DNA from: Deltaproteobacteria bacterium
GTDB taxonomy: Bacteria; Desulfobacterota; Desulfobacteria; Desulfobacterales; GCA-2748835
Direction of reading: 5' to 3'
Length of the DNA: 64,000 nucleotides
Assembly (NCBI GenBank): GCA_002748835.1
Contig: PDTL01000014.1
Location: forward strand, 23,838 to 87,837
Shown: one piece after another, positions 10,129 to 34,584 of the stretch
Layout: each line of letters opens with the position of its first letter
Numbering within the stretch: the first letter of the stretch is position 1
Translations under genes and position numbers: made by a program
Notes under the pieces: generated by a model
Databases searched by the model: none
What the model was told of the DNA's origin: nothing
What the model saw: only the letters and a program-made list of their open reading frames with translations

Positions 10129-10347
10129 ATGCGACGCACTCGTAACCTGATACGCAGTGGGCGGACATTTGTCAGCAGAGCTTGCATTTTTTTATTCCCG
10201 TTCACGCGACAAAAGGGCGCAGTCAGTCTGGAATATGCCTTTACACTGGCCCTTGCATCAATCTTTATGATCGGCGTATTCTATCTGTTTGTACAAATGT
10301 CCCGGGATATGCTCCGGGCATTTATCGAGATGGTCAAGTATTTATAA
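10129..10347 (+). CDS. flp: Flp-type pilin 1
   Basis: 72 aa. Prepilin motif KG/AVSLEYAF (G then E at +5 and Y at +6), followed by the hydrophobic helix TLALASIFMIGVFYLFV. A 30-aa leader is inferred. Confidence 0.55.
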   Translation: MRRTRNLIRSGRTFVSRACIFLFPFTRQKGAVSLEYAFTLALASIFMIGVFYLFVQMSRDMLRAFIEMVKYL

Positions 10348-10370
10348 AAACACCAACAGCGGAGGAAATT

Positions 10371-10637
10371 ATGAAAGTTGACATCAACGAACTGATGATT
10401 CGGGGTTATGTGGCTGCCGAAGACCGCCTGGACAGAGCGATTGAGCATGTGGCGACGAAGATTAAAGAGGAAAAAGGTGCCACGGCTGTGGAATATGCAC
10501 TTCTCACTGGCGTGATCGTCATCGGTGTCATATCCGCGTTTGCGTTTCTGCTTCCCAAGGATGAGGGAGACGAGGGGAACATGTTCACACAGACGTTTAA
10601 GATGATTATCCAGAAAGTCCAGGATTTTGTGCAGTAA
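10371..10637 (+). CDS. flp: Flp-type pilin 2
   Basis: GGAGGA RBS 5 nt before the ATG at 10371, which is an internal Met of track ORF 10182..10637. Classic Flp motif KG/ATAVEYALLTGVIVIGVI. The leader is unusually long (36 aa) and the C-terminal tail is acidic. Confidence 0.8.
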   Translation: MKVDINELMIRGYVAAEDRLDRAIEHVATKIKEEKGATAVEYALLTGVIVIGVISAFAFLLPKDEGDEGNMFTQTFKMIIQKVQDFVQ

Positions 10638-11081
10638 GTGTCGGAGGTGAATCGCATACATGCCCAGGTGCCTGTGTTGCAGCGTCACAAACCCGGAGTG
10701 ATAGACGATCACGGAGGGGTCACGGTTGAACTGGCGTTTACCCTGTTTCCGATTTTTCTCCTGTTTCTGGCGTTTGTTCAGGTCTCCGGTTTTTTGATCC
10801 TGCATGAAAAGGTGACGCTGGCCGCCAGCCTGGCATCGCGCAGTTACGGTATTCATATGAATGCCGGACAGGCGTATGAGAAGGCCGTTAGTGTTGTTTC
10901 CGGTGTTACCATGAAACAGTCCGGCAGCAGCGGCAGGGTCGAGACCCTGATTGAAAAAAAACAGCCGTTGTTTGAAGGATTCCGCCGAATCGCGTTTCCG
11001 GGACGCGCGGGTAAGCAGATGTCCGTATTCAAGGCGGTCTCGGCCTTTCAGGAAGACCAGAACCCCGGAGGAGACAACTGA
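10638..11081 (+). CDS. TadE-like pseudopilin
   Basis: N-terminal GGVTVELAFTLFPIFLLFLAF matches the TadE/TadF-type processed-pilin-like motif. The exact start (GTG 10638 or downstream GTG/TTG) is uncertain. The stop overlaps the next ATG (TGATG at 11079-11083). Confidence 0.6.
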   Translation: MSEVNRIHAQVPVLQRHKPGVIDDHGGVTVELAFTLFPIFLLFLAFVQVSGFLILHEKVTLAASLASRSYGIHMNAGQAYEKAVSVVSGVTMKQSGSSGRVETLIEKKQPLFEGFRRIAFPGRAGKQMSVFKAVSAFQEDQNPGGDN

Positions 11082-11965
11082 TGGCCGTATGCCCGGATCA
11101 CCGGCCCCTCCCCGGGATAATGGATGATGAAACGGGCGGTGCGGTACTGGTGGTGGTCTTTCTCATACCGGTTATGATTCTCATGATTCTGCTTATGTCG
11201 GATATGGGAAAAGTGGTTTTTTCCAAGATTCGGCTTCAGGCAGTGACGGATACGGCCATTCTGTCTGGTGCTGCGGTACAGGCAGCCGGCCTGAACGAAG
11301 TAGCGGATCTGAACAATGAATTACTAAAAGAAGCCCGGAAGTGCAAGGCGATACTTCAGAGTGGCATCTGGTACGGTTTCGGCCATGCGACCCGTGCGCG
11401 CACGTTTTTTACTGCCGGAAGCCCCAGAACCCCGCAGGGCGTACTCATGTACATCCGGAAGTATCAGCTGGATGCACTTGACGATTATGCGGCAGCTGCG
11501 ATTCGCGCTGTCCGGGAAGTGGTTCGGACCAATTTACCCGATGCAGTGATCAATTGGGGCATGTCCCGGTTTTCACAACCGCTCGCGCGGCTTCGGGAAA
11601 GCCGGCATGAGCAGGTTCGGTATCGCTATTATACGTCTCCATGTGACGGCTGCCCGCCCATACCGACGCTGCTATGGTTCACGCCGGACGCACCCATGTT
11701 CTCAGGCAGACATGACGGGCGGGTTTATTTTATGGCACTACGTGTGGGCGAAGCGAGTGGCCAGATCCGTATCTGCAGTTCTATGGCCAAATCCGGTCCC
11801 CCGACAAAAATTCGACTGGCAGTCGAACAACCGGTCGAGGATCTGTTTCTGGCAAAATTGTTGCGTGTACCGGAGCCGATCATCCGGTCTGTGGCTGAAG
11901 CAAAACCTGCGGGCGGTCATATCCGCGACCGGAAACCCTATTACAAGGCCGTGTTGATTAATTAG
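11081..11965 (+). CDS. TadG-like pilus assembly protein
   Basis: GGAGGAG RBS. N-terminus ETGGAVLVVVFLIPVMILMILLMSDMGKVV resembles the TadG N-terminal membrane segment. Size (294 aa) and position are consistent. Confidence 0.55.
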   Translation: MAVCPDHRPLPGIMDDETGGAVLVVVFLIPVMILMILLMSDMGKVVFSKIRLQAVTDTAILSGAAVQAAGLNEVADLNNELLKEARKCKAILQSGIWYGFGHATRARTFFTAGSPRTPQGVLMYIRKYQLDALDDYAAAAIRAVREVVRTNLPDAVINWGMSRFSQPLARLRESRHEQVRYRYYTSPCDGCPPIPTLLWFTPDAPMFSGRHDGRVYFMALRVGEASGQIRICSSMAKSGPPTKIRLAVEQPVEDLFLAKLLRVPEPIIRSVAEAKPAGGHIRDRKPYYKAVLIN

Positions 11966-12035
11966 GCATCTTCAGAATCTGTTTTGTCAGACCTGTGGGT
12001 TTTGCTGACGGTTTGATGCAGGATGGAACCTTTAG

Positions 12036-12416
12036 ATGAATGCGTCGCGAAAAAAAATGTTTCAGGATGAAACAGGTGCTGTGATGGTGGAATTTTGCCT
12101 CATTGCTCCGGTCTTTTTTGTGCTTATCGGTCTGATGCTGGTCATGCACGATTTCCTTTCCAGTTGCAGCGATGCCCAGATCGACCTGAAGAATCGGATG
12201 CGAAAGTCCATGCACAGTGCCCGGAAAGGTCCGTTCCGAAAAATGCCTCAGGCCGTGGCAGAGGTCCGGATCGAGATACCCGGGAACCTCAGGAAATTTG
12301 CCGGGCATGATCGGATGACAGCCCGTTACACCCTGGATGGATACGGCGGCTGCTACCAGGGGCTGGGTATCAGCATATATGCAAAGAGACGACGGATACG
12401 CAAAATAGCGTTTTGA
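12036..12416 (+). CDS. TadE-like pseudopilin
   Basis: N-terminus ETG/AVMVEFCLIAPVFFVLIGLML has G with E at +5 and F at +6, followed by a hydrophobic helix. Confidence 0.6.
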   Translation: MNASRKKMFQDETGAVMVEFCLIAPVFFVLIGLMLVMHDFLSSCSDAQIDLKNRMRKSMHSARKGPFRKMPQAVAEVRIEIPGNLRKFAGHDRMTARYTLDGYGGCYQGLGISIYAKRRRIRKIAF

Positions 12417-12458
12417 TTCATTGATTCATTTTTACAACGATCTTATGGAGTTGTCGGC

Positions 12459-13328
12459 ATGCAGAACCGGAAGGCGGTATTGATCTCGCTTGTATGTGCA
12501 CTGGTGGCCATGGTGATGGTCGTCTCCTATGTTTCACAGAAAGAGCGGCGCATCCTGCGCATGGCATCTCCGGTAAAGGTGGTGCTGGCAGCCAGGGATA
12601 TCCCGGAAGGGACAAGGCTTGACCGGTCCTGGCTCAAGGTGGCCAAGATCCCCAAAAAGTTCGTCCAGCCGGGTACGTCGGGAGATGTGGAAGACTGGCT
12701 GGGGAAAACCGTTGTCATTCCTGTCCTGAAAGATACCCAGGTGATGGAGCCCATGTTCTCGAGTTCCCGACAGGGGCGGTTTTCCGTCAAGGTGCCGCCA
12801 GATCAGCGGGCGTTCAGTGTGGCTGTGTCTGAGGTGTCGGCCGTGTCCGGGCTGATCGGACCGGGGGATTTTGTGGATGTCATGGTCACTGTGGAAGAAG
12901 GGGATATTGTGAACGGTCAGGCCGTGAGTCGGGACATCAAAACCCGGACCATTCTGCAGAACGCACTGGTTCTTGCCGTGAACCGGATTTATTCGGACAT
13001 GCGGTTCCGCCAGGCCTCCGACCTGAAGCAACAGTCCCGGGGAAGCCTGCTGGCATCCCCCACAGACGATGAACCGGCCATGGAAAAGTTGGACAACATC
13101 CGAACGGTGACCTTGTCACTGAGCCCCCAGGATGCGCAGAAAATGAGTCTGGCCCAGGAAATCGGATCGATTTCCCTGATGTTGAGATCAAGCTGGGATG
13201 AGAGCGGCGGCGCGGCACCCATTCCATCGATCAATGCACGGGAGTTTCTGGGCATCAAAAAAATGGTAATTCCGCGTTCGAGACCGGCGTGGGTAGAGAT
13301 CCGCGGTGCGGAGGAAGTGTACCGCTAA
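12459..13328 (+). CDS. cpaB: Flp pilus assembly protein CpaB/RcpC
   Basis: N-terminal TM (VLISLVCALVAMVMVV). SAF-like segment VKVVLAARDIPEGTRLDRSWLKVAKIPKKFV. RcpC-type beta-clip C-terminal region. Confidence 0.85.
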   Translation: MQNRKAVLISLVCALVAMVMVVSYVSQKERRILRMASPVKVVLAARDIPEGTRLDRSWLKVAKIPKKFVQPGTSGDVEDWLGKTVVIPVLKDTQVMEPMFSSSRQGRFSVKVPPDQRAFSVAVSEVSAVSGLIGPGDFVDVMVTVEEGDIVNGQAVSRDIKTRTILQNALVLAVNRIYSDMRFRQASDLKQQSRGSLLASPTDDEPAMEKLDNIRTVTLSLSPQDAQKMSLAQEIGSISLMLRSSWDESGGAAPIPSINAREFLGIKKMVIPRSRPAWVEIRGAEEVYR

Positions 13329-13344: not shown

Positions 13345-14775
13345 ATGAAACTGCGACCCAATGACAGATGTCCGGCCCGGATGTCTCTGATACTTGTGAT
13401 GTTCATGATGGTTACCGGCTCGACTTGGGCCGCAACCCCGGTGAATGTGACCCAGGGCCAGAGCAAAACCCTTTCTGTGGGATTTACCATTGCAAAGGTG
13501 GCCACCGGAGACCCGTCCGTGTGCGGTGTGCTGAAAACCGCAGATCGGGAGTTGCTGGTCAATGCCAAACAGGCGGGCCGGACCAATGTAATTGTCTGGG
13601 GTGCTGACGGCTCCACGCGAGAATATGCGATTACCGTCACCGGATCCGGACTGACGATTACCGCAGGCGAACTGAAATCCCTGCTCTCCACGGTAGAGGG
13701 AGTGAGCGTGCGGCTGGTGGGTAGCCGGGTCCTGGTGGAAGGAGAAGTCTTCACCAAAAAAGACCTTGAAAGGGTCCGCCGGGTGACCCAGGGGTTGTCC
13801 AATGTCATCAACATGGTGGAACTCAGCCCCCTCATGAAGACCATTGTAAAAGACGAGATCGAAGGGGTGCTCAAGGACGAAGGCTTTTCCAACCTGCGGC
13901 TGAAGTTTGGAAAGAACAATTTTATCCTCACCGGCCAGGTGGGGAGTCAGGCAGAGATGGAACGGGCGCTTAAGCTGGCCGGGGCCTATGCCGCGGATAT
14001 CGTGAACGCCATTGAAGTGGATGACCGGATCGTGGAAACAAAGGCCGAGCTTATCGAGATGAGCCTGCAGGTTATGGAGATCGAAACCAGCGCGCTGAAG
14101 AATATGGGCATCCATTGGAACCCCGGCGGTTCCCTGGGAGGCTCCGGGAGTTATTCCGGCCAGTCGGGAAGCAAACCCTCCTTGAGCGGTTCCCTGACCG
14201 GGACCATATCTAGCCTGTTTCCGAAGATGAAACGGATTCAGGACACGGGCGCAGGAAGGTCTCTCATGGAACAGAGCCTCATCACCCAGAGTGGGGGAAC
14301 TGCAGACTTTTTTGCCGGCAGCGAAGTCCCGATACCGGTGGCCCAGGATGGCGGGAACATGAGTGTGGAATACAAGAAGGTAGGGGTGACCCTGGAATTC
14401 TCTCCGGTGATCGATCCTTTCGGTCGGGTGACCAGTCCGATTAAAATTGAAGCCAGTTCCGTGTCCGGCGAAGGGCCGGGAGGGGCGCCCGTCATCAGTA
14501 CATCCAAACTCAATACCATTGTCGGCCTTGAAAACGGGGAATCTGTAGCGCTGGCCGGCCTGGTGGGTCAAAAGGAAATGCGGCTGCTTTCCAAGTCCCC
14601 GCCCGGCGGTGGCAGCGCCCTGTTTCAGGCAAACAAGGAAACACTGAAAAGCGCGGACACACGTGAGGTGGTGATTTTCGTCACCCCGCGGATTCTGAGC
14701 CGTGCCGGAGACGGGGTGGACCGGATTCAACGGCGGGTGAAGGAAGGGTTCAAAGCCCAGGACCGTCAGGAGTAA
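13345..14775 (+). CDS. cpaC: CpaC/RcpA secretin
   Basis: I prefer the ATG at 13345, after GGAGAC, over the track start at 13306. It has a signal peptide and a pilus N-terminal domain (VNVTQGQSKTLSVG..VATGDPSV..NAKQAGRTNVIVWG). The secretin C-domain is SKLNTIVGLENGESVALAGLV...EVVIFVTPRIL. Confidence 0.9.
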   Translation: MKLRPNDRCPARMSLILVMFMMVTGSTWAATPVNVTQGQSKTLSVGFTIAKVATGDPSVCGVLKTADRELLVNAKQAGRTNVIVWGADGSTREYAITVTGSGLTITAGELKSLLSTVEGVSVRLVGSRVLVEGEVFTKKDLERVRRVTQGLSNVINMVELSPLMKTIVKDEIEGVLKDEGFSNLRLKFGKNNFILTGQVGSQAEMERALKLAGAYAADIVNAIEVDDRIVETKAELIEMSLQVMEIETSALKNMGIHWNPGGSLGGSGSYSGQSGSKPSLSGSLTGTISSLFPKMKRIQDTGAGRSLMEQSLITQSGGTADFFAGSEVPIPVAQDGGNMSVEYKKVGVTLEFSPVIDPFGRVTSPIKIEASSVSGEGPGGAPVISTSKLNTIVGLENGESVALAGLVGQKEMRLLSKSPPGGGSALFQANKETLKSADTREVVIFVTPRILSRAGDGVDRIQRRVKEGFKAQDRQE

Positions 14776-14822: not shown

Positions 14823-16886
14823 ATGGGCAGTGGTCAGGTCATTACGGTATATGGATCCAAGGGCGGCACAGGCAGAACCTTTGTGTCTGTCAACCTTGCG
14901 GTGGACCTGTTTATCACCACACGGCAGCCGGTTCTGCTGCTTGATTTTGTGCGACCGGTTTCTGTGGGTGTGAAGGCGATGCTGAACGCCTCTGGTATCC
15001 GTTTTGCGGATGCCATTCTGACCACAGCTCCGCAGCTGAAACCGGTGGTGCTTTCGTCGTATTTTACCCCCCATGACTCCGGCATTCAGCTCCTTGCCCT
15101 GACATCGGGAGAACGGCCGCTGGAAAACAGCGGGTATACCGGTGACACCGTACAGGGGCTGATCGGAAAACTCAAAGAACAGTTTGCGTTTCTGGTCATT
15201 GATGCAGGCAGCCGCTGGGATGAAGGGACCATTGCGCTGGTTGCCGCCTCGGATCGCGTGTTGATGGTGGTATCGCCAGAACTGGAGACGCTTGATCAGG
15301 CACGGGCGGATGTGGGTCGCCTGAGGCTCCAGAATTTTCCTGTGGGCGGCATCGGCGTGGTCCTGAACAAGGTGGGACTCAAGGGCGGGGCGGATGTGCC
15401 GGCAGCTGAGCGGGCACTGAAGCTGCCATCCATGGCGGCCATACCCTATCATGAAGATGTGCTCTCCCTGCAGTGGGCTGGACCGTTCCCCTCCCATCAC
15501 AAGCGGCACGCGGTGAACCGGGGACTTCAAGGGGTGACCACCGCCCTGCTGCAGTCTTTTGGAAACACCCCTCCCGTAGCCCGGGCATCGGCTGCTGCGT
15601 CAGCGGAGACCCATCCTGCGGATCAGCTGAAGCTGACCATTCACCGGAAACTGCTCTCGACCATTGATTTTAAAAAGCTTGATACGGAAGTTGAAAACGA
15701 TCCGGTGAAAAAAGAGGAGCTGGAGCGTGAGGTTCGCCGGGTGGCCGTGGCCCTGATTGACGAGCTTGCTCCCCACCTGGTCAGGGAGGAAAGGAACACC
15801 CTGCTGCGGCAGGTGATCCAGGAAACCCTGGGCCTGGGTCCGCTGGAGGATTTGCTCGCGGACACGGACATCACCGAGATCATGGTCAACCGGTGGGACC
15901 AGATCTACATTGAACGATCCGGACGCCTGATCGAAACCGGGCTCCAGTTTTTTTCAGACGCGCATCTGGTGAACATCATTGGCCGCATTGTCGGTCCCCT
16001 TGGACGTAAAATCGATATCAGCACGCCCATGGTCGATGCCCGGCTCCCAGACGGTTCCCGTGTAAATGCCGTGATCCCGCCCCTTGCCATCAACGGTGCC
16101 TCGCTGACCATCCGTAAATTTGCCCAGGAGCGGCTGAACATGGAGGCTCTCGAAGCCTTCGGATCCCTGAACCGCCAGGTGGCCGAATTTCTCATGGCGG
16201 CGGTGTGCGCCCGTCTGAACATTGTGGTGTCCGGCGGTACGGGCAGCGGTAAGACCACGCTGCTCAACATCCTGTCCGGCTATATCCCGGAAGGTGAACG
16301 GATTATTACGATTGAGGACTCTGCGGAACTCAAATTGCATCAGCCCCATGTGGTGCCCCTGGAATGCCGGCCCCCGAACATTGAGGGAAAGGGTGAGATC
16401 ACGATCCGGGATCTGCTCCGCAACGCCCTTCGCATGCGGCCAGACCGGATTGTGGTGGGCGAGTGCCGGGGCGGGGAAGCCCTTGACATGCTACAGGCCA
16501 TGAACACAGGGCATGACGGGTCCATGACCACCATCCATGCCAACACTACCCAGGAAGCCCTTGCGCGGATCGAGACCCTGGTCATGTATACGGGATTCGA
16601 ACTTCCGTCACGGGGCATCAAGGAACAGATCGCCGGTGCCGTGGATCTGATTATCCAGGTCAAACGATTCAAGGACGGGAGCCGGAAGCTGATCCAGGTG
16701 AGTGAGCTCCGGGGCATCTCGGAAGACCGGATCCGCATTGATGACGTGTTCCTGTTCAACCAGATCGATGAGGTGGACGGCACCCCCAGGGGCATGCATG
16801 TGGCCACCGGTTTTGTGCCGGAATCAGTACAGCGGTTCCAGGAAAAAGGGATTCATCTGCCCAGGGAACTGTTCTGGGCCAACTGA
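14823..16886 (+). CDS. cpaF: fusion of TadZ/CpaE-like ParA/MinD domain with CpaF/TadA secretion ATPase
   Basis: Residues ~1-250 look ParA/MinD-like: [21 protein letters not shown] is a deviant Walker A with Arg in place of the usual Lys, and LVIDAG follows. Residues ~270-687 are a full CpaF: Walker [15 protein letters not shown], Asp/Glu boxes ITIEDSAEL, Walker [13 protein letters not shown] and His box [13 protein letters not shown]. It is one uninterrupted ORF. Confidence 0.9.
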
Positions 16887-16986
16887 TATGCCGGTTTGAA
16901 CAACCAGCCCGTCCTGCGGTACTGGTGTCGAGCGGAGGGCACTGTCTTTTTTTTTACGATCTTATTGCCCGTAAGATCAGGGAGCG

Positions 16987-18210
16987 TTGCAAGTGAACTG
17001 GATATATTTTGCCATTGTGTTTGTGCTGATCTGGGTGGTGGTTTATCTCCTTGTCAAAGAGCGGACCGGCCTGTTCTCTCAGAAGCTGGATCAGGAAACA
17101 GAAAAAATAACCGCCATGCTTGATGCCCTGTTCATGGTAGCGCGGCCATCCTTGATCCGGAAGGCGGTTGTCTGCTGTTGTCTCGTCGGCGTCTTCACGG
17201 GGATCGTGATGCCCGGTCTGATTGCCGATATTGACGTGAAAGCGACCGTCAGCAAAGCAATTTCGCTGAATCAGTCAGGGGACCACGAGGCGGTGCTCGC
17301 GTTACTGGATGGCAGCGAAAAACGTGTTTCTCCGCTGCTTCAGAACGAACTCGGCGTCGCCTACGCGGGCACCGGAAATTACGGGCTGGCAGAGCAGGCG
17401 TTCAAAAATGCACTGGATACAGTACCGGAATATGTGCCGGCGCGGGTGAACCTGGCCGGGGTCTACATGAAGCTGGGACGGCTGGAAACGGCGGGTTTTG
17501 AACTGGCACGGGCACGGGAATATGATGAAATCCCGCTGTCCGAAACCGCAGTGATTGGCAAACCCCGGCAAGAAGACCGGTGGATCATCTCCGCTGTACT
17601 GGCGCTAATACTCGGGGTGATCGGTTACCGGATACCCGGATGGGGATTGGCTTGGCTGAAGAATCGGCGCCTCAGCAGATTCGAGGACCAGCTGGCTGAC
17701 GGGCTGGTCATGGTCTCTAACGGGCTCAAGGCCGGATTGAACCTGACCCAGGCATTTGAAAATGTCAGCCGGGAAGGTGACCCGCCACTGGCCCAGGAGT
17801 TCTCGCTGGTGCTCAAGGAAACCCGGCTGGGCTATGATCTGGATGATGCTCTGATAAGGCTCTCTGCGAGAATGCCCACGGATGATACTAAACTGCTGGT
17901 GAACTCCATCCTGATTCTGCGGGAAAGCGGGGGAAATCTGGCATCCATTTTTGATACCCTGGTTCACACGATCAATGAACGGAAACGGGTGCTGAAAAAA
18001 ATCAAGACCATGACGGCCGAAGGAGAGACCCAGGCCTATATGCTGGCGGTCCTCCCCCTGGCACTCGGATTTCTGCTCTCGCGTCTCACGCCGGATGTAT
18101 TTGCACTCATGTACACCACGTTTTTTGGATGGTGCCTGATCGCACTCATGGTCCTCATGGAGGGGATCGGTTTGATCTGGATGCTGAAAACGGTGAAAGT
18201 GAAGATCTGA
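16987..18210 (+). CDS. tadB: TPR-containing TadB-like platform protein (single T2SS-F domain)
   Basis: N-terminal TM, then TPR-like repeats (ELGVAYAGTGNYGLAEQAFKNALDTVPEYVPARVNLAGVYMKLGRLETA). A T2SSF domain follows (GLKAGLNLTQAFENVS...DDALIRLSARMPTDD...ESGGNLASIFDTL...KTMTAEGETQAYMLAVLPL). The start is TTG 16987 or GTG 16993. Confidence 0.85.
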   Translation: MQVNWIYFAIVFVLIWVVVYLLVKERTGLFSQKLDQETEKITAMLDALFMVARPSLIRKAVVCCCLVGVFTGIVMPGLIADIDVKATVSKAISLNQSGDHEAVLALLDGSEKRVSPLLQNELGVAYAGTGNYGLAEQAFKNALDTVPEYVPARVNLAGVYMKLGRLETAGFELARAREYDEIPLSETAVIGKPRQEDRWIISAVLALILGVIGYRIPGWGLAWLKNRRLSRFEDQLADGLVMVSNGLKAGLNLTQAFENVSREGDPPLAQEFSLVLKETRLGYDLDDALIRLSARMPTDDTKLLVNSILILRESGGNLASIFDTLVHTINERKRVLKKIKTMTAEGETQAYMLAVLPLALGFLLSRLTPDVFALMYTTFFGWCLIALMVLMEGIGLIWMLKTVKVKI

Positions 18211-27511: not shown

Positions 27512-28400
27512 TTCCGCCGCAGGCAAACATGCTTCAGTGGCGCTGGTGATGACCGCCGGTAGCGCCAAAGGGCGTTCCTTTGCGCTGAATGAAGGTGGGG
27601 TGTACCGGATTGGCCGGTCACCGGAATCTGAAATCGCCCTGGATCCCCAGGATAAAAGTGTGTCCCGGCTGCATGCGCGTGTGCAGGTGAAATCCGGGAG
27701 GATTTTGTTTGCAAACGCCAGCCAGACCAACCCGGCTGTGGTGAACGGCAAGCTTGCGCTGAAAACGCTGGAACTGAGAAACGGCGATACCCTTCGCATT
27801 GGCGCTTCCGTTTTTCAGCTTCACACCGCTCGCACGGCAGGAGGGCCAGATAAAAAAACAATAAAGACAGGTGAGGAAAAACGACCGGTGCTGCTCTACG
27901 CAGTGGCGGGCGTGGTTGTGCTGATTGCGGTGCTGGCCGGTGTCAAACGATTTATATCTGATCGTGGCGGCGGGAGTGGAGATGACACACTGACTATCAG
28001 CAGCAACGCGTCGGATCCGCTGCTTGAAGGTGACGGGCTTCCCATGGCTTCCCTTTCGAATGCGCCGGGAAAGGGCGGCAATACACAGGCGGATTCGCTG
28101 TTTCACCAGGGGCTTTTTTTCTATGACGCCGGAAAACTCAAAAATGCCATTGACCGTTTTGAGGCGGCGCTGAAGGCGCAGCCTGATCACACCCTTTCCG
28201 AGCAGTGGCTGATGAAGACAGAATCGGAGCTGGCTGCCAGTGTGGATGTGCATTATCAGAAAGCCCTGCAGCACATGAAGTATATGCGTTACGGTGAAGC
28301 TGTCACCGAGTTTACCATCGTGGTTCAGCTGTCCCAGGATCCGGCAGATGAAAAATTTATGAACGCAAAAGAACAGCTGCTCAAGTTGAAAGGAAAGTAG
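27498..28400 (+). CDS. FHA-domain membrane protein with C-terminal TPR-like region
   Basis: FHA core YRIGRSPESEIALDPQDKSVSRLHARV...ASQTNPAVVNG. TM VLLYAVAGVVVLIAVLAGV. TPR-like segment ADSLFHQGLFFYDAGKLKNAIDRFEAALKAQPDH. Confidence 0.8.
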   Translation: MQTGNSAAGKHASVALVMTAGSAKGRSFALNEGGVYRIGRSPESEIALDPQDKSVSRLHARVQVKSGRILFANASQTNPAVVNGKLALKTLELRNGDTLRIGASVFQLHTARTAGGPDKKTIKTGEEKRPVLLYAVAGVVVLIAVLAGVKRFISDRGGGSGDDTLTISSNASDPLLEGDGLPMASLSNAPGKGGNTQADSLFHQGLFFYDAGKLKNAIDRFEAALKAQPDHTLSEQWLMKTESELAASVDVHYQKALQHMKYMRYGEAVTEFTIVVQLSQDPADEKFMNAKEQLLKLKGK

Positions 28401-28404
28401 AGAG

Positions 28405-29901
28405 TTGATCACGCTTTCAATATCGTTTGCAGATGGCAGTCAGGAAACACGGGAAGCGCTGCCGGAAAACACGGTGATGATCGGTCGGGCCGATGACTGT
28501 GATGTTCAGCTGGCCGGAGGCCGGGTGTCTCGGAATCATGCCCGGATTTACAACGAAGACGGTCGATGGATGGTTGAGGATCTCAAATCGACGAACGGGC
28601 TTTCCGTCAATGATATTCAATCGACCCGATATGCACTCAATAACGGGGACGTGATCCGCATCGCGGAGAACCGGATCCGGGTGACCCTGCCTGTGGAAAC
28701 CGGCGGCGCAGAAGATAGCGGTGTTGATCCGGATGCCACCTGTATTGAACCGGTCATGGGAGACCCGGAACCGGATGCCACCTTTGTGGTGAGCCGTGAG
28801 GCGATGATGGGGTCTGTTACCGGAAAGGGCGCTGCCACAGGCAACGTGGCCGCCTTTGTTCGGGAAAAACCGATTCTGGCACTGGTTGGCGCATTGCTTT
28901 TGGTGATCCTTATCAGCATAGTCGTGTTGCTCAGCGGAAATGAAAACCCTGCACCGGAGACACCCAAATTGGCAGTTGTGCCTGAGGATGCGGACACCGC
29001 CAAGGCTGCGTTGGAGCAGAAACGAAAAATCGGGGCCTATCTTCAGCGAGGGGAAATGCTGCTTGCTGCCGGTGAAGTGGAAAATGCCCTGATCCGGTTT
29101 GACGCCATCCTGGAGCTGGATCCGGGACATCGGGCGGCAGCGACACTTGCCGCCCGGTGCCGGCGTGAGATCGATGCAAGAGACGCAGCGCGCAGGCAGG
29201 CGGAAGAAAAGGCGTCCCTGGCAGCGGAAAAGCTGAATAAGGGTCTGGAACTGGCCCGGTATTATCACAGTCACCGGGAATGGGATCAGTGCATTGCCAT
29301 GCTCGATTCCTTGGCTGGCCAGATTGCAGAAGGGTCTGCTGAGGCCAAAGAAGTGTCGGCCTTGCGCCAGACCGCATCTGATGCGCTGAAAAAGGCAGCC
29401 GCTGCCCGGAAAAAACAATCTGAAGTGACGGGCGCCATCCAGCGCCAGGTGAACAAAGGATCCGGTTACTATAAAAAACGGAACTATTACAAGGCGCTTC
29501 TTGCCTGGCGTAAAGGGGTGAAGATTTCTCCGAACCATCCCCTTGCGCTTGAAATAAAAGATCAGATGATTCCAAAAGCCGTTTCGGCCCTGAATCAACG
29601 GGTGGCTGGTGATTACCAGCGGGCGGTTCAGTATAAGAACCGCGGGGATGACGGAGAAGCTCTGATCTATTTTGACCGTGTGGTCAATCGGTGGCCTGAA
29701 TACAAGGATGCGGCACGTCAGCGCAACGCAATCGAAAAATGGCTGGAAGATGAGGCGAAGCGTCTGTACCAGGAAGGGAAAGTTTACGAAGGCATCGGAC
29801 AGATGGACAAAGCAATTCGCAAATGGGAGGCTGTGCTGGAAAAGATGCCGCTGAAATCGAATGCCTATTATAAAAAAGCCGCTGCCAAGCTGGGGCGCTA
29901 A
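28405..29901 (+). CDS. FHA-domain membrane protein with extended TPR region
   Basis: TTG start. FHA core MIGRADDCDVQLAGGRVSRNHARI...DLKSTNGLSVND. TM ILALVGALLLVILISIVVLL. Several TPR-like repeats extend to the C-terminus. Confidence 0.8.
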   Translation: MITLSISFADGSQETREALPENTVMIGRADDCDVQLAGGRVSRNHARIYNEDGRWMVEDLKSTNGLSVNDIQSTRYALNNGDVIRIAENRIRVTLPVETGGAEDSGVDPDATCIEPVMGDPEPDATFVVSREAMMGSVTGKGAATGNVAAFVREKPILALVGALLLVILISIVVLLSGNENPAPETPKLAVVPEDADTAKAALEQKRKIGAYLQRGEMLLAAGEVENALIRFDAILELDPGHRAAATLAARCRREIDARDAARRQAEEKASLAAEKLNKGLELARYYHSHREWDQCIAMLDSLAGQIAEGSAEAKEVSALRQTASDALKKAAAARKKQSEVTGAIQRQVNKGSGYYKKRNYYKALLAWRKGVKISPNHPLALEIKDQMIPKAVSALNQRVAGDYQRAVQYKNRGDDGEALIYFDRVVNRWPEYKDAARQRNAIEKWLEDEAKRLYQEGKVYEGIGQMDKAIRKWEAVLEKMPLKSNAYYKKAAAKLGR

Positions 29902-29908: not shown

Positions 29909-31663
29909 ATGTCAGGGGGGCAGATGACAACCGATACCGTGTCCGTATTATCCAATCTTATCGGTGACAAATATCATGTGGGAGAGGTGATCGCCCGGGG
30001 CGGGATGGGCGAAGTTTACACCGGCACCCATGTGGCGTTGAACCGGAAGGTGGCCATCAAGATTATCCGTACCCATCTTTCCTCAGACGCCCAGATCCGG
30101 GAGCGGTTTCTCCGGGAAGCCCGGCTCACGGCCCAGCTGACCCATCCGAATATCATCGAAATCTTTGATTTTGGCGGCAATGAGGCCTTTGACTACATCA
30201 TCATGCCCTATATTGACGGGATCACCCTGAAAGATCGTCTGACTGGAACCGGACCCGTGCCGGCGGACGAAACCCTGAAACTGGTCCGGCCCGTGGTCGA
30301 TGCCCTGGCCCTGGCCCATGACAGGGGGGTGGTGCATCGGGACGTGAAACCGAGCAATATCCTGGTAACCTCAGGCGGGATTCCCATTCTGACGGATTTT
30401 GGCATCTCAAAGAATCTGAACGATTCTGACATGACCCTGTCGGACACCATGCTGGGCGCTCCCCGATATATGAGCCCCGAACAGATTCGCGGCGAGCGGG
30501 TGGACGGGCGCAGTGATCTTTATGCCATCGGGATCATTCTGTATGAAATGCTTTGCGGATCTCATCCGTTCAAGGGGGATCAGGTGGCTGCCATCTGCTA
30601 TCAGCAGATGCATGAGGTGCCGTCGCCTCCGGATACGGTGAACCCCGCGATACCGGAGTGGTTATCCGGACTTGTCATGCAGCTGGTGGAAAAAAAACCG
30701 GAAGACCGGTTTCTGGATGCCCATGCACTGCTCAAGGCCATGGATGCAAAAGGCGATGTCGCAGCGATCCGTTCTCTCGGGTCAGCGCAAGACATCATGG
30801 CCGGTGACAGGACGATCGTGGGGGACGCAACCCGTGTCGGAGATGCGACGGTGGTCGGCCCTGAACCGGCAGCCGTTTCCCTGAGCGATGCCACACAGAT
30901 TGGTGAAGCGACCGAAATCGGTGGTCCGGTTGTCCATGCGTCGGCAGGCATACCGGCGGCCGGACCCAACCGGAAACGCTGGTATGCCATTGCCGGTGCC
31001 GTGATGGGACTGCTAATCATCATCGGTATCGCCGGAAAGCTGCTCAGGTCTCCTGATGCAGAAAAATCTGTGGAAACGCCCATAAAAGCTGAAGCACCGG
31101 TATCATCCGAGGTCGACACAGGCGGTGTGGTATCGCCTGGCTCCGAAGATCGTGCGGAATTGGAACCGCTGACTGAACCGGTGACCCGGAAAGATCTGAT
31201 TCAGGCCATTCAACAGCTGCCTGTGACAGGCGCACAGGCCAGCGGCATTCATATCGACTTGAGCCAGCCATCCTTCCGGGTGGGCGACCCCATTGCCTAC
31301 CGCCTGAAATTTGACAGGCCCGGTTACGGGGCCGCAGTGCTCCTGACGACGTCCGGGGAGCTCATCTGTCTGTACCCGAGCGGCAGCCAGTCAGGCGCTT
31401 TGGTGGAACCCGACCGTGTGTACCCGGTTCCCCATACATCCCTGGGCATTGATCTTGAAGTGGTGGGGCCGGAAGGCAAAGAACGGGTTGTTGCGTTTCA
31501 CAGCACTGTGCCGGTGATCGAACCGGCTGTGAGTGCGGACGCTCCCTTTACAGAGATCACGGATGCAACCCCGAAGCTGGTCAAGGCCTTGCATGATGCA
31601 GTGAAGAAATCCGGGACTGGCATGAGCATTGCGGTCACAGACTATTTTGTCTTTACCCCCTGA
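29909..31663 (+). CDS. Hanks-type Ser/Thr protein kinase with TM and DUF4384-like ectodomain
   Basis: Kinase motifs GRGGMGEVY, VAIK, HRDVKPSNIL, DFGISK and APRYMSPEQ. TM WYAIAGAVMGLLIIIGIAG. The C-terminus FRVGDPIAYRLKFDRPGYGAAVLLTTSGELICLYPS...GKERVVAFHS resembles DUF4384. The start is ATG 29909 or 29924; the track start at 29861 overlaps the upstream gene. Confidence 0.9.
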   Translation: MSGGQMTTDTVSVLSNLIGDKYHVGEVIARGGMGEVYTGTHVALNRKVAIKIIRTHLSSDAQIRERFLREARLTAQLTHPNIIEIFDFGGNEAFDYIIMPYIDGITLKDRLTGTGPVPADETLKLVRPVVDALALAHDRGVVHRDVKPSNILVTSGGIPILTDFGISKNLNDSDMTLSDTMLGAPRYMSPEQIRGERVDGRSDLYAIGIILYEMLCGSHPFKGDQVAAICYQQMHEVPSPPDTVNPAIPEWLSGLVMQLVEKKPEDRFLDAHALLKAMDAKGDVAAIRSLGSAQDIMAGDRTIVGDATRVGDATVVGPEPAAVSLSDATQIGEATEIGGPVVHASAGIPAAGPNRKRWYAIAGAVMGLLIIIGIAGKLLRSPDAEKSVETPIKAEAPVSSEVDTGGVVSPGSEDRAELEPLTEPVTRKDLIQAIQQLPVTGAQASGIHIDLSQPSFRVGDPIAYRLKFDRPGYGAAVLLTTSGELICLYPSGSQSGALVEPDRVYPVPHTSLGIDLEVVGPEGKERVVAFHSTVPVIEPAVSADAPFTEITDATPKLVKALHDAVKKSGTGMSIAVTDYFVFTP

Positions 31664-31738
31664 TCGTCCGGATTTTAATGAATTTTCTGTGAAATGTGCT
31701 ATACTGTTTTATCACTCATGAACAGGGAGAAACCAATC

Positions 31739-33820
31739 ATGAAAATACATGTCAAACCATGGATGTATGCGGCCCTTGCTGCCATCTGTACGGTCATCGT
31801 GGGGGCGGGCGCGGCGGCAGCTGATGAAAACGTCCTGATTTTGGTCAACCCCCAGGCCGGATCCGGCAGCGGGGTGAGCGTCCAGGTGGTGAACGGGGCT
31901 GATGGCGGCGTGGATACCATGGCCATTGAAAACGAACTGGCCCGGGGTCTGATGGAGAACGGGTATACGGCGACACTGGGCAGCGAGCTCATGTCCGGCC
32001 GGGATCTGAGTGAGAAGGAAGTCGAAAAGGCACGCACCGGGAACATGCAGCTGCTTAAAAAAGCTGCGGCCCTTCACGATGCCGGCGTATTTTGCGTGGC
32101 GAAGGTTTCTTCCCGCATGTCCACGGAATCGGTTCTGGGTATGGAGATGACACGGGCAGACCTTACGCTCTCCTACCGGATCTACGACACCATCACTGGA
32201 AAAAATATTGCCCGGAATGTACTGAAATTTTCAAACGCCGACCGGTCTCCGGGTGCGACCTTGAATGCCCTATATGCGAAGATGGCAGACGGATTTGCCG
32301 CAGATGTGGCTGGAAAAGTGGCTAAGGATGTTTCTTCCAGCCGCCGGAAAGCCATGGCAAAAGCCAAAAAATCGTACAGGAAAAAAGTGGTGGTAGCGGC
32401 AAAACCCAAGTCAAGACCCAAACCCGCGGCTGCGCCGTCACCGGCCATAACGGAAAACCTGAAAATTGTCATTGTGAATCCCCCCCTGGGGCGCGGCTTT
32501 ACGATTAAGGAAAAAAGGAAGACCATCTCCCTTGAAGGGATGGTCGTGGATCCCAGCGGTGCCGGCGTGTCCCATGTCATGGTCAACAACACTGCCGCCA
32601 ATCTCGCTTCAGACGGGCGCTTTACCTACCCGCTGACCCTGAGTGCCGGCGCTAATACCATCGATATTCTGGCCGTGAACCGGCAGGGAAAAACCGCGCG
32701 CAAACAGATCACCCTGAACAGGGCGTTAGACACCCTGCCACCGGTGATCCGAATCACTCAGCCGGTGATTACCCGTGGGTTTAAAACCGTTGTTAAACCC
32801 AAGGCCTCTTATTTGAAAGTCAGCGGCACGGTGACCGACGACAGTGAAATTCTTTTTGTGAAAATCAATGGGTCACCTGTGGTTCTGGGTTCTGGAGGCG
32901 CATTTTCCACCAATCTGCCGCTGGATTCTGCAGCGCGCTCGGAAATCAGGGTGGCGTCGTCAGATGTGCACGGGAATGTGAGCCATAAAGAGATTCCCAT
33001 CACTCGGGGTGTGGCAGCTACATCCTCACCCGCACCCGCTTACCCGTCCGCTGCCGGATTCCGGCCGGTGCTCTGGGGACTTTCGGTGGGGGTGTCTGAT
33101 TATAAATCCGGAATGATTGATCTCGAATATGCGGATGATGACGCCAAGCTGATTGCGGATTTTTTCAGTCGCAAAGGAAAAGGGATTTTTCACAAGGTCC
33201 AGTTTAAGACTCTGCTGAATACCGATGTTACCCGGGACAGCATCATTGATGCCATGACCACCCACCTGGGAAAAGCCGGACCCGATGATGTGGTGATGAT
33301 TTTTGTGGCCGGCCACGGGATCAAGCACCGGCAAACCGGTTCTTATTATTTTGTGCCGTCAGACGCGGACGGTGACTCCCTCATCTCCAGAGGGCTGCGC
33401 ATGTCCGATTTTGAGGAGTCGATCAAAATTCTCTCCCAGAACGTGAACAAGGTGATCGTTGCCATGGATACCTGCCACTCGGGTGCCATGCAGATCGGCC
33501 TCCGGGGTGCGGAATCCGAAAGCCTTGCCGAGAAGCTGAAAGCCGCATCCGGCCTCTATATTCTCGCAGCATCAAAGAGCGGTGAAAGCTCCATGGAAGG
33601 AAAAGACTTTCGGATTGACGGAGACAAGGGGCACGGCGTATTCACGTATGCCCTGATCAACGGTATGCGCGGTGCTGCGAATTTTGACCAGGATACCTAT
33701 GTCTCTTTGAACGAGGTTTTTCATTATGTGGCAAAAGAAGTACCGGTGCTGACCAACGGACGGCAGCACCCGTATCAGAAAGTGGATGGGAATGATCTCC
33801 CCCTGGTGCGTTTGAAATAG
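31739..33820 (+). CDS. exported caspase-like (peptidase C14) protein with N-terminal LpoB/CsgG-like module and Ig-like middle region
   Basis: ATG at 31739, 8 nt after AGGGAGA. Signal peptide WMYAALAAICTVIVGAGAAAA. C14 pattern LSVGVSDYKS...YADDDAKLIADFF...VMIFVAGHGI (His) ...VIVAMDTCHSGAM (Cys). Confidence 0.85.
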   Translation: MKIHVKPWMYAALAAICTVIVGAGAAAADENVLILVNPQAGSGSGVSVQVVNGADGGVDTMAIENELARGLMENGYTATLGSELMSGRDLSEKEVEKARTGNMQLLKKAAALHDAGVFCVAKVSSRMSTESVLGMEMTRADLTLSYRIYDTITGKNIARNVLKFSNADRSPGATLNALYAKMADGFAADVAGKVAKDVSSSRRKAMAKAKKSYRKKVVVAAKPKSRPKPAAAPSPAITENLKIVIVNPPLGRGFTIKEKRKTISLEGMVVDPSGAGVSHVMVNNTAANLASDGRFTYPLTLSAGANTIDILAVNRQGKTARKQITLNRALDTLPPVIRITQPVITRGFKTVVKPKASYLKVSGTVTDDSEILFVKINGSPVVLGSGGAFSTNLPLDSAARSEIRVASSDVHGNVSHKEIPITRGVAATSSPAPAYPSAAGFRPVLWGLSVGVSDYKSGMIDLEYADDDAKLIADFFSRKGKGIFHKVQFKTLLNTDVTRDSIIDAMTTHLGKAGPDDVVMIFVAGHGIKHRQTGSYYFVPSDADGDSLISRGLRMSDFEESIKILSQNVNKVIVAMDTCHSGAMQIGLRGAESESLAEKLKAASGLYILAASKSGESSMEGKDFRIDGDKGHGVFTYALINGMRGAANFDQDTYVSLNEVFHYVAKEVPVLTNGRQHPYQKVDGNDLPLVRLK

Positions 33821-33870
33821 GCTTATCGACTGTTCATTGAAACATGGAAAGATGCGGAAAGGAGTGGCGC

Positions 33871-34584
33871 ATGCGCCTTGAGAAAAAAGAAGAAAGACTA
33901 AAACAGCGTCTCAGCTGGATGCTGTTGTTCCTTATTTTCGTGCTGACCACAGGATGCGTTGCCAGCAGTCAGCCGTCAGCACCGCCGCTGCCGCCGGCCA
34001 ATGATACGCAGGTGAATATGCGGGATCTTCCCTATCCGAACGGAAAACGGGCGCTTGTTGCCATTGCCGGTTTTGAGAACAAGAGTACCTATTCTGCTGA
34101 CCGACTCTGGGATACATCGTCCCGGCTTCTCGCCTCCGCATTGATACAGGCCAACTATTTCCGGGTGGTGGAATGGGAAAAAATGAAGCAGCTCTTTGAC
34201 TGGGACACACTCTCCAACGCCAGCCTTGTGAAATCGCCGGACGATCTGAAACGGGCTCAGCGGATTCTTTTGTGTGAATATTTTGTCACCGGCACCATCA
34301 CGTTCTTCAATATCAAGCAGCATGCCCAGGTGAGCGCCATGTCCAAATCCAAAGTACTGGATACCACGGTCCGTGTCGATTTGCTGCTGCAGGACGCACG
34401 CACCGGAGAATATCTGAGCGCATCCAACGGTGAGCACACGGTGCGCCAGTCGTACACAGCAGGCATGTCCGGCGGTCAGACCGGCAGCTGGGACAGCCAC
34501 TCCGGTGATGAAGCCCTGTCACAGGCCATTAACAAAGCCCTGTATAACCTGGTGTTGAATTTTCATTCCAGGCGACGTGGATAA
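33871..34584 (+). CDS. CsgG-family lipoprotein
   Basis: ATG at 33871 after AAGGAG. Lipobox VLTTGC. CsgG-like core VAIAGFENKSTYSADRLWDTSSRLLASALIQANYFRVVEWEKM...YFVTGTITFFN...VRVDLLLQDARTGEY. Confidence 0.75.
   Translation: MRLEKKEERLKQRLSWMLLFLIFVLTTGCVASSQPSAPPLPPANDTQVNMRDLPYPNGKRALVAIAGFENKSTYSADRLWDTSSRLLASALIQANYFRVVEWEKMKQLFDWDTLSNASLVKSPDDLKRAQRILLCEYFVTGTITFFNIKQHAQVSAMSKSKVLDTTVRVDLLLQDARTGEYLSASNGEHTVRQSYTAGMSGGQTGSWDSHSGDEALSQAINKALYNLVLNFHSRRRG

Follow-up and report, generated by a model that had tools for sequence, protein, structure and literature searches.

A conserved Tad-type locus of Desulfobacterota with two motor ATPases, FHA proteins, a Ser/Thr kinase and a caspase-containing envelope module

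The locus reported here lies in a stretch of 64,000 nucleotides (nt) from a Deltaproteobacteria bacterium of the Desulfobacterales (assembly GCA_002748835.1, contig PDTL01000014.1), which we term the window and whose coordinates are used throughout. It combines a Tad-type pilus machine with FHA-domain proteins, a Hanks-type Ser/Thr kinase and a set of envelope proteins. A first-pass annotation of the nucleotide letters had delimited an operon-like run of about 20 same-strand genes at 10129-34584, with gaps of 100 nt or less. These 20 plus-strand genes are indeed present, with intergenic gaps of -14 to 100 nt once the starts are corrected, as are all the abutments and overlaps cited for them (10637/10638, 11079-11083, 18208-18212 and 27498-27511). 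The boundary was drawn too narrowly: six further plus-strand genes of the same conserved set, at 3144-9970, had been missed. The conserved unit is a run of 26 plus-strand genes spanning approximately 3144-34584, about 31 kb, and is made up of three evolutionary modules. Gene families were assigned by searches of the translated open reading frames (ORFs) against Pfam, NCBIfam and PDB sequences, and related loci and contigs are designated by the labels L002-L065. The starts were corrected for the genes of the following proteins: Flp2 (10371), the secretin (13345), the transglutaminase-like protein (18210), the thioredoxin-like protein (22942), the PilB-like ATPase (23483), the kinase (29924), the caspase (31739) and the CsgG-like lipoprotein (33871).

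Module A comprises the Tad core and opens with the genes for pilins and pilin-like proteins. These are: Flp1 (10129-10347), a Flp-type pilin with a KG/AVSLEY motif and tblastn matches in L009 and L059, for which Pfam gives no match; Flp2 (10371-10637), a second Flp-type pilin with a KG/ATAVEY motif and a Flp_Fap score of 27.1 bits, under the 32.2-bit cut-off; the TadE-like minor pilin TadE1 (10638-11081), which is borderline on the TadE model (22.5 bits versus a cut-off of 22.9) and has syntenic matches; a TadG-like protein (11081-11965) matched by the Pfam Tad model (PF13400, E 3e-8); and a second TadE-like minor pilin, TadE2 (12036-12416), with an N-terminal GAVMVEF, a position kept in related loci and weak Pfam matches, none of them significant. 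Flp1, Flp2, TadE1 and TadE2 were called from N-terminal G/xxxxE(Y/L/F) motifs together with tblastn matches in related loci; the other core Tad parts predicted by the first-pass annotation are recovered by Pfam and NCBIfam. The pilins are followed by CpaB/RcpC (12459-13328; Pfam RcpC E 3e-26, plus SAF) and by a CpaC/RcpA-type secretin (13345-14775) with T2SS-T3SS_pil_N, weak BON and Secretin domains. The predicted mature Flp1 (42 amino acids, aa) has 8 aromatic residues (19%) and no long aromatic-free gap; this recalls the proposals on conductive pilins, a parallel that is pure speculation for a Flp-type pilin.

The next gene encodes a 687-aa TadZ~CpaF fusion (14823-16886), in which a ParA/MinD-like domain (KGGTGRT) is joined to a T2SSE domain. 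Its residues 269-665 match Caulobacter CpaF in the PDB-sequence search (E 8e-113), and it scores 326 bits on TIGR03819, under the 373-bit cut-off of that model. TadZ is present solely as this N-terminal domain, which is devoid of a receiver-like domain, and the fusion is found in every related locus. It is followed by a 407-aa TPR~TadB platform protein (16987-18210) with one T2SSF domain and a TPR region between transmembrane helices TM2 and TM3. This second fusion had also been pointed out, and is conserved in all related loci.

The locus displays the following features of Tad (type IVc) pili: the Flp prepilin motif, a CpaF-clade ATPase, TadB together with TadC, a secretin with CpaB, and a TadZ domain. 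Likewise, the canonical Tad/Cpa systems (Aggregatibacter tad, Caulobacter cpa) have the Flp motif, TadE/G, RcpC/CpaB, RcpA/CpaC, TadA/CpaF and TadB plus TadC. The locus departs from this type in possessing neither a dedicated TadV/CpaA nor a single bifunctional motor ATPase. The canonical systems, in contrast, contain TadV and TadD, a separate TadZ with a receiver-like domain (as is seen in L064) and no FHA proteins, and one published account describes them as using one bifunctional ATPase (PMC6920026). A different form of the machine is known from Bdellovibrio bacteriovorus, which has a TadZ~TadA fusion, a tadC apart from tadB and no TadV in its tad loci, the missing tad-locus prepilin peptidase being replaced by PilD (10.64898/2026.07.08.737194). 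We compared the window with this system, and with the Kil system discussed below, by published gene and domain descriptions. On this footing, Bdellovibrio shares with the window a TadZ (ParA/MinD-like, K/RGGxGxS/T) fused to TadA, a tadZA-tadB unit and TPR/FHA proteins near tad genes; hence, the TadZ~CpaF fusion, which had been counted as an oddity of the window, is real and not novel (10.64898/2026.07.08.737194). However, the Bdellovibrio tad genes are dispersed over several loci, and PilZ and histidine kinases figure among their regulatory neighbours. For these tad loci a PilB-type motor is not reported ('PilB' has 0 occurrences), and no kinase/caspase/CsgG/MacAB module is described.

The second motor is a 568-aa PilB-type ATPase (23483-25189) with MshEN and T2SSE domains. 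With its start at 23483 it is identical to a 568-aa NCBI protein from a metagenome-assembled genome (MAG), and it matches Geobacter PilB over the full length (E 5e-128). On the NCBIfam models it attains 565 bits for PilB (cut-off 676) and 515 bits for GspE (cut-off 630), in both cases under the cut-off. Both motors retain the Walker A/B motifs and the His box, and the PilB-like motor also retains the tetracysteine motif. The earlier proposal that the two ATPases belong to different clades, CpaF-type and GspE/PilB-type, is borne out by the above matches to CpaF and PilB. In a tree of the top PilB matches (neighbour-joining only) six context-verified PilB-like proteins define a clade of 49 sequences that leaves out a PilB from an ordinary housekeeping context. 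The closest relatives are approximately 50% identical, and every one of them that was looked up sits in the same gene arrangement. In the MshEN-like domain the canonical cyclic di-GMP motif, RLGxx(L/V/I)..., is not evident by eye and we make no claim on it. The ATPase gene is followed by that of a 292-aa TadC-type platform protein (25209-26087), with one T2SSF domain. The first-pass annotation had taken each motor to be followed by a platform gene of its own. Each of the two platform proteins has a single T2SSF domain, and they are better read as one TadB/TadC platform, which has been split by insertion and is served by two motors.

Between tadB and the gene for the PilB-like motor are embedded three non-Tad genes, as had been observed previously. 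These encode an exported transglutaminase-like protein (18210-19241; Transglut_core E 2e-6), an exported 1214-aa protein (19274-22918) and a thioredoxin-fold (Trx) lipoprotein (22942-23466). The first two occupy a slot, bounded by the TPR~TadB and Trx genes, whose gene content varies from locus to locus. There are several distinct types of occupant. The transglutaminase-like protein is found only in the window, L008, L012 and L060, and occurs there together with the 1214-aa family. A family of 418-436 aa (the "425-aa" family) is the commonest occupant (L002, L003, L010, L013 and L014). Several MopE-domain proteins are found in L003/L011 and L065, and mucin-like proteins of 281-312 aa in the loci of the Desulfovibrionales type. 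The slot is empty in L009 and L015. The 1214-aa protein has no Pfam or NCBIfam family match; it shows a conserved Gly/Ala/Cys-rich hydrophobic segment near residues 830-865, and in L008 and L012 its orthologues carry NPYxDWx heptad repeats at the C-terminal end.

All the slot proteins that were inspected (the 1214-aa, 425-aa and mucin-like families; the MopE-domain proteins and the transglutaminase-like orthologues of other loci stand outside this inspection) have signal peptides, and most of them end in short basic tandem repeats common to unrelated families. NPYKDWV/NPYADWK repeats are shared by the 425-aa family and the 1214-aa-type proteins of L008 and L012, while other tails are built of TDPNKGW and GWDKVQP variants, and the mucin-like proteins have KKDAPSAKEME 11-mers. 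Profile searches against PDB sequences recover no relative of either the 425-aa or the 1214-aa family. The slot also varies within one genome: a contig of 7.36 Mb (L003, L065) has two complete PilB-TadC-FHAx3-kinase-caspase-CsgG-GNA1162 copies, at about 5.02 Mb and 0.05 Mb, which differ in the slot, one having MopE-domain proteins with a C-type lectin and the other MopE-domain proteins with a Wzy_C protein. We infer that the slot encodes machine-associated exoproteins, which may be either cargo or tip/surface factors. In L012 a MazE-like antitoxin and a PIN-domain toxin (6780-7600) are inserted in the slot, between a 1099-aa protein and the Trx gene. In the window a perfect 12/12 sigma-70 consensus (TTGACA, 17 nt, TATAAT) is seen at 21867-21895, inside the gene for the 1214-aa protein, with the Trx and PilB-like genes approximately 1 kb downstream; it may act as an internal promoter or have arisen by chance.

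The Trx lipoprotein has a weak thioredoxin match in Pfam, and its profile matches PDB thioredoxins at E 1.7e-12. Its lipobox cysteine is invariant and it has no CxxC motif; it is therefore not a redox enzyme. The gene is found in all related loci except L009.

Downstream of tadC are three genes for membrane-anchored FHA proteins, the first of which starts 35 nt past tadC; FHA1 and FHA2 overlap by 14 nt and FHA2 and FHA3 are 4 nt apart. FHA1 (26123-27511) consists of an FHA domain, a TM helix, a conserved periplasmic domain, a further TM helix, a HAMP-like segment and a conserved C-terminal domain. FHA2 (27498-28400) has an FHA domain, a TM helix and a periplasmic TPR region, and FHA3 (28405-29901) an FHA domain, a TM helix and a long periplasmic TPR region. 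The FHA domains retain the Arg, Ser and His residues. A profile of FHA1 (16 orthologues) matches the phosphothreonine-binding FHA domains of GarA/OdhI, Rv1747 and FhaA at E about 1e-14, versus E 0.02 only for YscD-type domains; outside its FHA domain FHA1 finds no match in a profile search of PDB sequences.

The FHA genes are followed by module B, a gene for a Hanks Ser/Thr kinase (29924-31663; Pkinase E 1e-50), which has intact VAIK, HRD and DFG motifs, spans the membrane with one TM helix and carries a DUF4384 domain on the extracytoplasmic side. Its juxtamembrane region holds four tandem (D/E)ATxxG motifs within 30 residues; among all 128,000 residues of the window's six-frame translation this motif is met only 10 times. 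The corresponding tandem DATxxD/G array is found in nearly all full-length orthologues of the kinase with a juxtamembrane segment, where the stretch from the catalytic domain to the TM helix holds 3-5 copies of D-A-T-x-(I/V/L)-(D/G) (e.g. DDATLIDDATLIDDATLV). The kinases of L025 and L026, which are truncated or divergent metagenome sequences, are without the juxtamembrane segment. PknB and FhaA/GarA of mycobacteria furnish a precedent for the docking of FHA proteins to a kinase, as do PpkA and Fha1 of the type VI secretion system. Of the 16 loci in which the DNA past FHA3 is visible, 12 have a Hanks kinase as the next gene and four a PP2C phosphatase, the phosphatase being characteristic of the Desulfovibrionales-type loci L004, L016, L059 and L062. 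Both enzymes are seen in L060, which has a stand-alone DUF4384 protein, a kinase, a PP2C and a C14 protease in a row, and in L059, with a kinase just upstream of flp and a PP2C downstream. A tblastn search at E 0.01 finds no PP2C across the 64 kb of the window.

The continuation of the run past the three FHA proteins and the kinase into an exported caspase and a CsgG-like lipoprotein, which had been recognized from the letters, is confirmed by Pfam. The caspase-like protease (31739-33820; 693 aa) has a signal peptide, a conserved N-terminal domain, two Ig-like domains and a Peptidase_C14 domain. All 15 caspase orthologues compared keep the His/Cys dyad (xAGHG, DTCH[S/A]G). The contexts of orthologues at 42-44% identity were taken from a metagenome scan with a CsgG alignment. 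The N-terminal domain has no relative in a PDB-sequence profile search, and an hhalign comparison with the CsgG-like family gives a probability of 2%. The CsgG-like lipoprotein (33871-34584; Pfam CsgG E 3e-11) has an invariant lipobox cysteine.

The six genes missed by the first-pass annotation complete the envelope module, module C. These are: a GNA1162-like (DUF799) lipoprotein (3144-3869; PF05643 E 6.5e-11), 50-65% identical to the product of the gene directly after CsgG in L009-L015 and L027; an exported protein that we term ds2 (3931-5094), the orthologue of the gene after the GNA1162-like one in other loci, with a conserved N-terminal domain, a Gly/Ala-rich stretch, a variable C-terminus and a weak DUF2135 match; a TolC-like outer-membrane efflux protein (5187-6599; Pfam OEP E 2e-25), syntenic after ds2 in L020, L023, L026, L027, L035, L040, L045 and L046; a HlyD-like membrane-fusion protein (6596-8059), assigned by Pfam HlyD_D23 and synteny; a MacB-type ABC ATPase (8059-8721), 47-58% identical to the products of syntenic genes; and a MacB-type permease (8558-9970, with the true start probably at 8657-8726) with MacB_PCD and FtsX domains. 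A profile search finds no PDB relative of ds2, and permissive Pfam scans of the regions without assignment gave nothing beyond its weak DUF2135. Single-sequence AlphaFold (AF2) models were too poor for use, with a predicted local distance difference test score (pLDDT) of 52 for the CsgG-like protein and of 39 for ds2. A hairpin (5152-5177) of 10 pairs, 9 of them G-C, with a T-rich tail after it, lies in the 92 nt that separate ds2 from the TolC-like gene; it could act as a terminator or attenuator within the envelope module. A consensus promoter scan of the region did no better than on shuffled sequence, and the terminator scan was suggestive at most.

The full order, as observed in L027/L028, is PilB, TadC, FHA1-3, kinase, caspase, CsgG, GNA1162, ds2, TolC, HlyD, MacB-ATPase and MacB-permease. 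In the window the block from the GNA1162-like gene to MacB sits 5' of flp, on the same strand and still adjacent. The window is hence a permuted version of the arrangement, because GNA1162-like, ds2, TolC, HlyD and MacB come after CsgG in other genomes. Further links within the module are provided by L045, where one ORF (1549-3423) fuses a Peptidase_C14 domain to a CsgG-like domain and the ORF just upstream (186-1844) fuses Peptidase_C14 to DUF4384. These fusions furnish a Rosetta-stone link among C14, the CsgG-like domain and DUF4384, the outer domain of the kinase. In the tad-less module of L035, two proteins with a FlgT_N-like domain are encoded beside CsgG (10642-11910) and after MacB (17823-18983); the N-terminal part of the caspase protein may correspond to them. 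In Desulfolutivibrio sulfoxidireducens (CP045508.1, L062) a 964-aa Peptidase_C11 (clostripain-like) protein with PPC domains is encoded after the PP2C, at 16154-19048. The Desulfolutivibrio system is thus also one with a clan CD protease, of family C11 rather than the C14 of the Desulfobacterales.

Matches to the CsgG, GNA1162-like, OEP, HlyD, MacB_PCD and FtsX families relate module C to CsgG, GNA1162 and MacAB-TolC. Unlike curli and MacAB-TolC systems it includes a caspase and ds2, and Pfam scans of the locus proteins detect the CsgG-like domain only, with no curli CsgA/B/E/F.

The order CpaB-CpaC-TadZ~CpaF-TPR~TadB-[slot]-Trx-PilB-TadC-FHA1-3 recurs in about 18 distinct loci, with core proteins that are 42-52% identical (tblastn with the window proteins; every locus long enough). 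The sole exception is L009, with neither slot genes nor a Trx gene. The hosts are mostly Desulfobacterota MAGs, along with sulfate-reducing isolates. A scan with a TadC alignment, at one genome per species, recovers 11 loci, all from Desulfobacterota MAGs. In a TadC profile search about 98 clusters score at least 364 bits, after which the scores fall abruptly to 258 bits. Named members of these clusters include Desulfolutivibrio sulfoxidireducens, Desulfonatronovibrio magnus, Solidesulfovibrio and Desulfovibrio, and the complete Desulfolutivibrio genome has the full arrangement (CP045508.1, 14.5-35.4 kb). Two loci under the drop are of other types: L063 (TadC 38% identical) has a TadC-DUF192-FHAx3-pilins-RcpC-secretin order without PilB, and L064 (36% identical) a canonical Flp-TadZ(REC+ParA)-TadA-TadB-TadC order without FHA genes. 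The same order as in the window is met in MAGs of the Desulfococcaceae, Desulfosudaceae, Desulfosalsimonadaceae, Desulfobacteraceae and Desulfovibrionales and in metagenome contigs.

The downstream genes are part of this conservation. The FHA trio is followed by the kinase and the caspase in all 11 kinase-type relatives in which the downstream region is visible (Desulfobacterales MAGs and unassigned metagenome contigs), and CsgG comes next after the caspase wherever the contig continues. The adjacency of the tad variant to these genes is hence not fortuitous. The postulated co-occurrence of FHA, kinase, caspase and CsgG genes with the tad variant holds for the kinase-type loci, and does not extend to L004, L016, L059 and L062, which have the PP2C instead.

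A functional parallel for such a combination is offered by the TagQRST-PpkA-PppA-Fha1 pathway of Pseudomonas, in which an outer-membrane lipoprotein and an ABC transporter activate a kinase that gates assembly of the H1 type VI secretion system (T6SS; PMC7817224). There a membrane-bound Hanks kinase, a PP2C and an FHA protein gate an envelope machine; the parts that would correspond to them here are the kinase or PP2C and the three FHA proteins. The sensing arm of that pathway (lipoprotein, periplasmic protein, ABC transporter) would correspond to the CsgG-like and GNA1162-like lipoproteins, the exported proteins and the MacB-type pump. The T6SS pathway differs in controlling a T6SS and not a Tad machine, and in having one soluble Fha1 versus three membrane-anchored FHA proteins; the window, in turn, has TolC and HlyD partners for its pump, and a caspase. 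As judged by analogy, the likeness is one of logic and not of family.

Taken together, we favour, by a narrow balance of probability, the interpretation that the locus encodes a phosphothreonine-gated, two-motor Tad machine with an associated envelope module. Module A would form the filament machine, of the Tad (type IVc) sort known from Kil and Bdellovibrio. Its two hexameric motors, CpaF-type and PilB-type, may alternate on one platform, as do PilB and PilT in type IVa pili. The machine would serve for display or secretion of the slot proteins, with the redox-dead Trx-fold lipoprotein acting as a chaperone or pilotin. The three FHA proteins are likely to form an inner-membrane/periplasmic scaffold that couples the machine to phosphothreonine signalling: the DATx(I/V/L)(D/G) array of the kinase would be autophosphorylated and dock the three FHA domains, such that their recruitment depends on phosphothreonines set by the kinase and removed by the PP2C. 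Module C may pass an envelope or contact signal to the DUF4384 domain of the kinase, on the model of TagQRST. Orthocaspases and clostripain cleave after basic residues, and more speculatively the clan CD protease of module C could process the Lys/Arg-rich repeat tails of the slot proteins. The machine might then serve in attachment to surfaces or partner cells, with regulated display or secretion of the slot proteins; the candidate roles are adhesion, partner-cell contact, secretion and antagonism. Sequence alone speaks for neither side of the contrast drawn in the first-pass annotation between a secretion or contact apparatus and a simple adhesive pilus.

A more far-reaching proposal, which we hold to be doubtful, is that these loci represent a distinct class of type IV filament system, in which a Tad core has taken up a PilB-family second motor and three membrane FHA proteins. 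Envelope contact would switch on assembly, relayed through the lipoproteins, ABC pump and caspase to the kinase, whose tandem phosphothreonines dock the FHA proteins, with delivery or display of exoproteins as the outcome; these would be specific to each locus, diversify rapidly and be marked by basic C-terminal repeat tails. If true, such a class could serve sulfate reducers in antagonism between bacteria or in attaching to partner cells within syntrophic consortia, and maturation of the repeat tails would fall to the C14 (Desulfobacterales) or C11 (Desulfolutivibrio) protease.

The first-pass annotation had listed five non-canonical features of a candidate undescribed system. The locus is real and non-canonical, and three of the five features have already been published, for Bdellovibrio and as the FHA neighbours of Kil (PMC8460266). 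No named system matches the locus gene for gene. The literature searched, work on tad with FHA genes in sulfate reducers and on DUF4384, DUF799 and GNA1162 included, contains no description of this system. It mentions neither a tad locus with a conserved PilB-family motor nor the Trx lipoprotein, the repeat-tailed variable slot proteins, the Thr array of the kinase or a caspase/CsgG/GNA1162/ds2/MacAB-TolC module in this context. A single bifunctional motor is the defining trait of Tad pili, and a conserved lineage with both CpaF and a PilB-family motor on a split TadB/TadC platform offers a natural experiment on division of labour between motors. The union in one operon of a kinase or phosphatase, a candidate phosphothreonine docking array and FHA proteins makes the phosphothreonine-gated machine a model open to direct test. 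Envelope biology that is still unexplored in the Desulfobacterota is hinted at by the variable exoprotein slot and by the linkage of caspase, CsgG and DUF4384. The presence of the system in cultured hosts (Desulfolutivibrio sulfoxidireducens, Desulfonatronovibrio magnus) makes genetics and imaging feasible.

Several observations weigh against the phosphothreonine-gated machine as formulated above. An A24 prepilin peptidase (TadV/CpaA) is found neither among the locus genes nor among the 20 other window ORFs scanned. The Thr motifs of the window kinase end in G and not D. The window's 1214-aa protein is without the repeat tail of its orthologues, and its hydrophobic Gly/Ala/Cys segment could instead be a membrane anchor. 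A gap of 158 nt separates MacB from flp1, and the strongest terminator-like hairpin of the region (5152-5177) lies inside module C, so that several transcription units are possible. Module C occurs without tad, FHA or kinase genes in L035, L040, L041, L045 and L046, being situated in L035 beside cmk-ispH-rpsA-sppA, and the Desulfovibrionales-type loci have no caspase, CsgG or MacAB at the locus. Across lineages, module C is hence an optional partner of the machine.

These last observations are also the ones that would be expected if the window merely juxtaposed independent neighbours, namely a Tad pilus of the usual adhesive type, Ser/Thr signalling genes of general use and an unconnected envelope module of lipoproteins and efflux pump: module C stands alone beside housekeeping genes in L035, is missing its caspase, CsgG and MacAB in the Desulfovibrionales-type loci, and could be transcribed separately given the hairpin and the 158-nt gap before flp1. 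We nevertheless consider this unlikely. All 16 loci keep the PilB-TadC-FHA1-3 block together with a kinase or phosphatase, at approximately 45-50% identity. The FHA genes overlap or nearly abut and begin right after tadC, and the PilB-like and Trx genes sit inserted between tadB and tadC themselves. The window's module C has remained adjacent and co-oriented despite the rearrangement, and the kinase and caspase follow the FHA trio in every kinase-type locus (11 of 11), with CsgG where the contig continues.

A second alternative is a Kil-like apparatus for contact-dependent killing, in which the slot proteins (the 1214-aa and transglutaminase-like ones) would be toxins delivered into neighbouring cells. 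In Kil, FHA and FHA+TPR proteins lie beside the platform genes (MXAN_4648/4649-KilH-KilG; KilD), and the role of its many FHA proteins and the trigger of assembly are open questions (PMC8460266). Kil resembles the window in its CpaB, its pil_N+BON+secretin protein (KilC), its CpaF-type motor, its two single-domain platform proteins, its Flp/TadE/TadG-like pilins, its FHA and FHA+TPR proteins with the platform genes and its many associated genes without an assigned function. The layout and the secretin domain set, the polymorphic slot, with the toxin-antitoxin pair of L012, and the conserved Gly/Ala/Cys hydrophobic stretch of the 1214-aa family would all suit such a reading. However, Kil has a single ATPase, KilF, fused to an FHA domain, whereas the N-terminal domain of the window motor is ParA/MinD-like (TadZ); it has a prepilin peptidase in the cluster, is spread over two clusters and is found in predators. 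None of the following are listed for it: a PilB-type motor, a Trx lipoprotein, a kinase/PP2C, a caspase, CsgG/GNA1162 or MacAB-TolC. On these gene descriptions, and given its lack of an FHA-fused motor, we do not place the locus in the Kil family proper. The hosts of the present system are sulfate reducers, which are not known predators; no immunity-like gene is evident beside the slot genes; no toxin family was detected; and the 425-aa family and mucin-like proteins look like surface or adhesive factors. Kil-like killing is hence quite unlikely.

The PilB/GspE-type motor could also drive a short Flp/TadE pseudopilus, with the slot proteins leaving through the secretin as in type II secretion. 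Type IVb pilus operons encode secreted proteins (TcpF, CofJ), the inspected slot proteins have signal peptides and their genes lie between motor and platform genes, and the second motor does reach 515 bits on the GspE model. It aligns with PilB/GspE over its full length and shares the MshEN-like N-terminal domain and the tetracysteine motif of the type IVa/type II motors. Nevertheless, it forms its own clade, is paired with a single-domain TadC instead of PilC/GspF, and is better matched by the PilB than by the GspE model (565 versus 515 bits, both under the curated cut-offs). The locus lacks GspC/L/M and a two-domain GspF, and among its proteins PilM/N/O/P, GspC/L/M and type IVa pilins were not detected by Pfam and NCBIfam. 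Furthermore, L009 and L015 keep the whole machine with an empty slot (L009 without Trx). This reading we likewise rate as having rather little chance of being correct.

An anti-phage or conflict system of kinase and caspase, standing beside the pilus operon by chance, is highly improbable and was rejected: the matches to the PADLOC PD-T4-6 kinase models (E 6e-99) and caspase model (E 7e-11) are generic domain matches, none of the 8 other proteins tested matches any PADLOC defence model and the gene set matches no model set, the signal peptide marks the caspase as exported and not a cytoplasmic executioner, the kinase sits in the membrane and exposes its DUF4384 domain outside the cytoplasm, and the linkage to tad genes is conserved.

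The conserved unit is flanked by unrelated genes. Past a gap of 406 nt lies a gene for a 734-aa protein (34991-37195) with DUF3141 (a PHA-synthase-like alpha/beta hydrolase) and TerB domains, which is not conserved beside the system in other genomes. Further out, on the minus strand, are an MFS-acyltransferase fusion (955-2841) and genes for enoyl-CoA hydratase, CoA transferases, acyl-CoA dehydrogenase and 3-hydroxyacyl-CoA dehydrogenase (37844-44827). With these ordinary metabolic flanks, the locus is therefore chromosomal and not on a mobile element.

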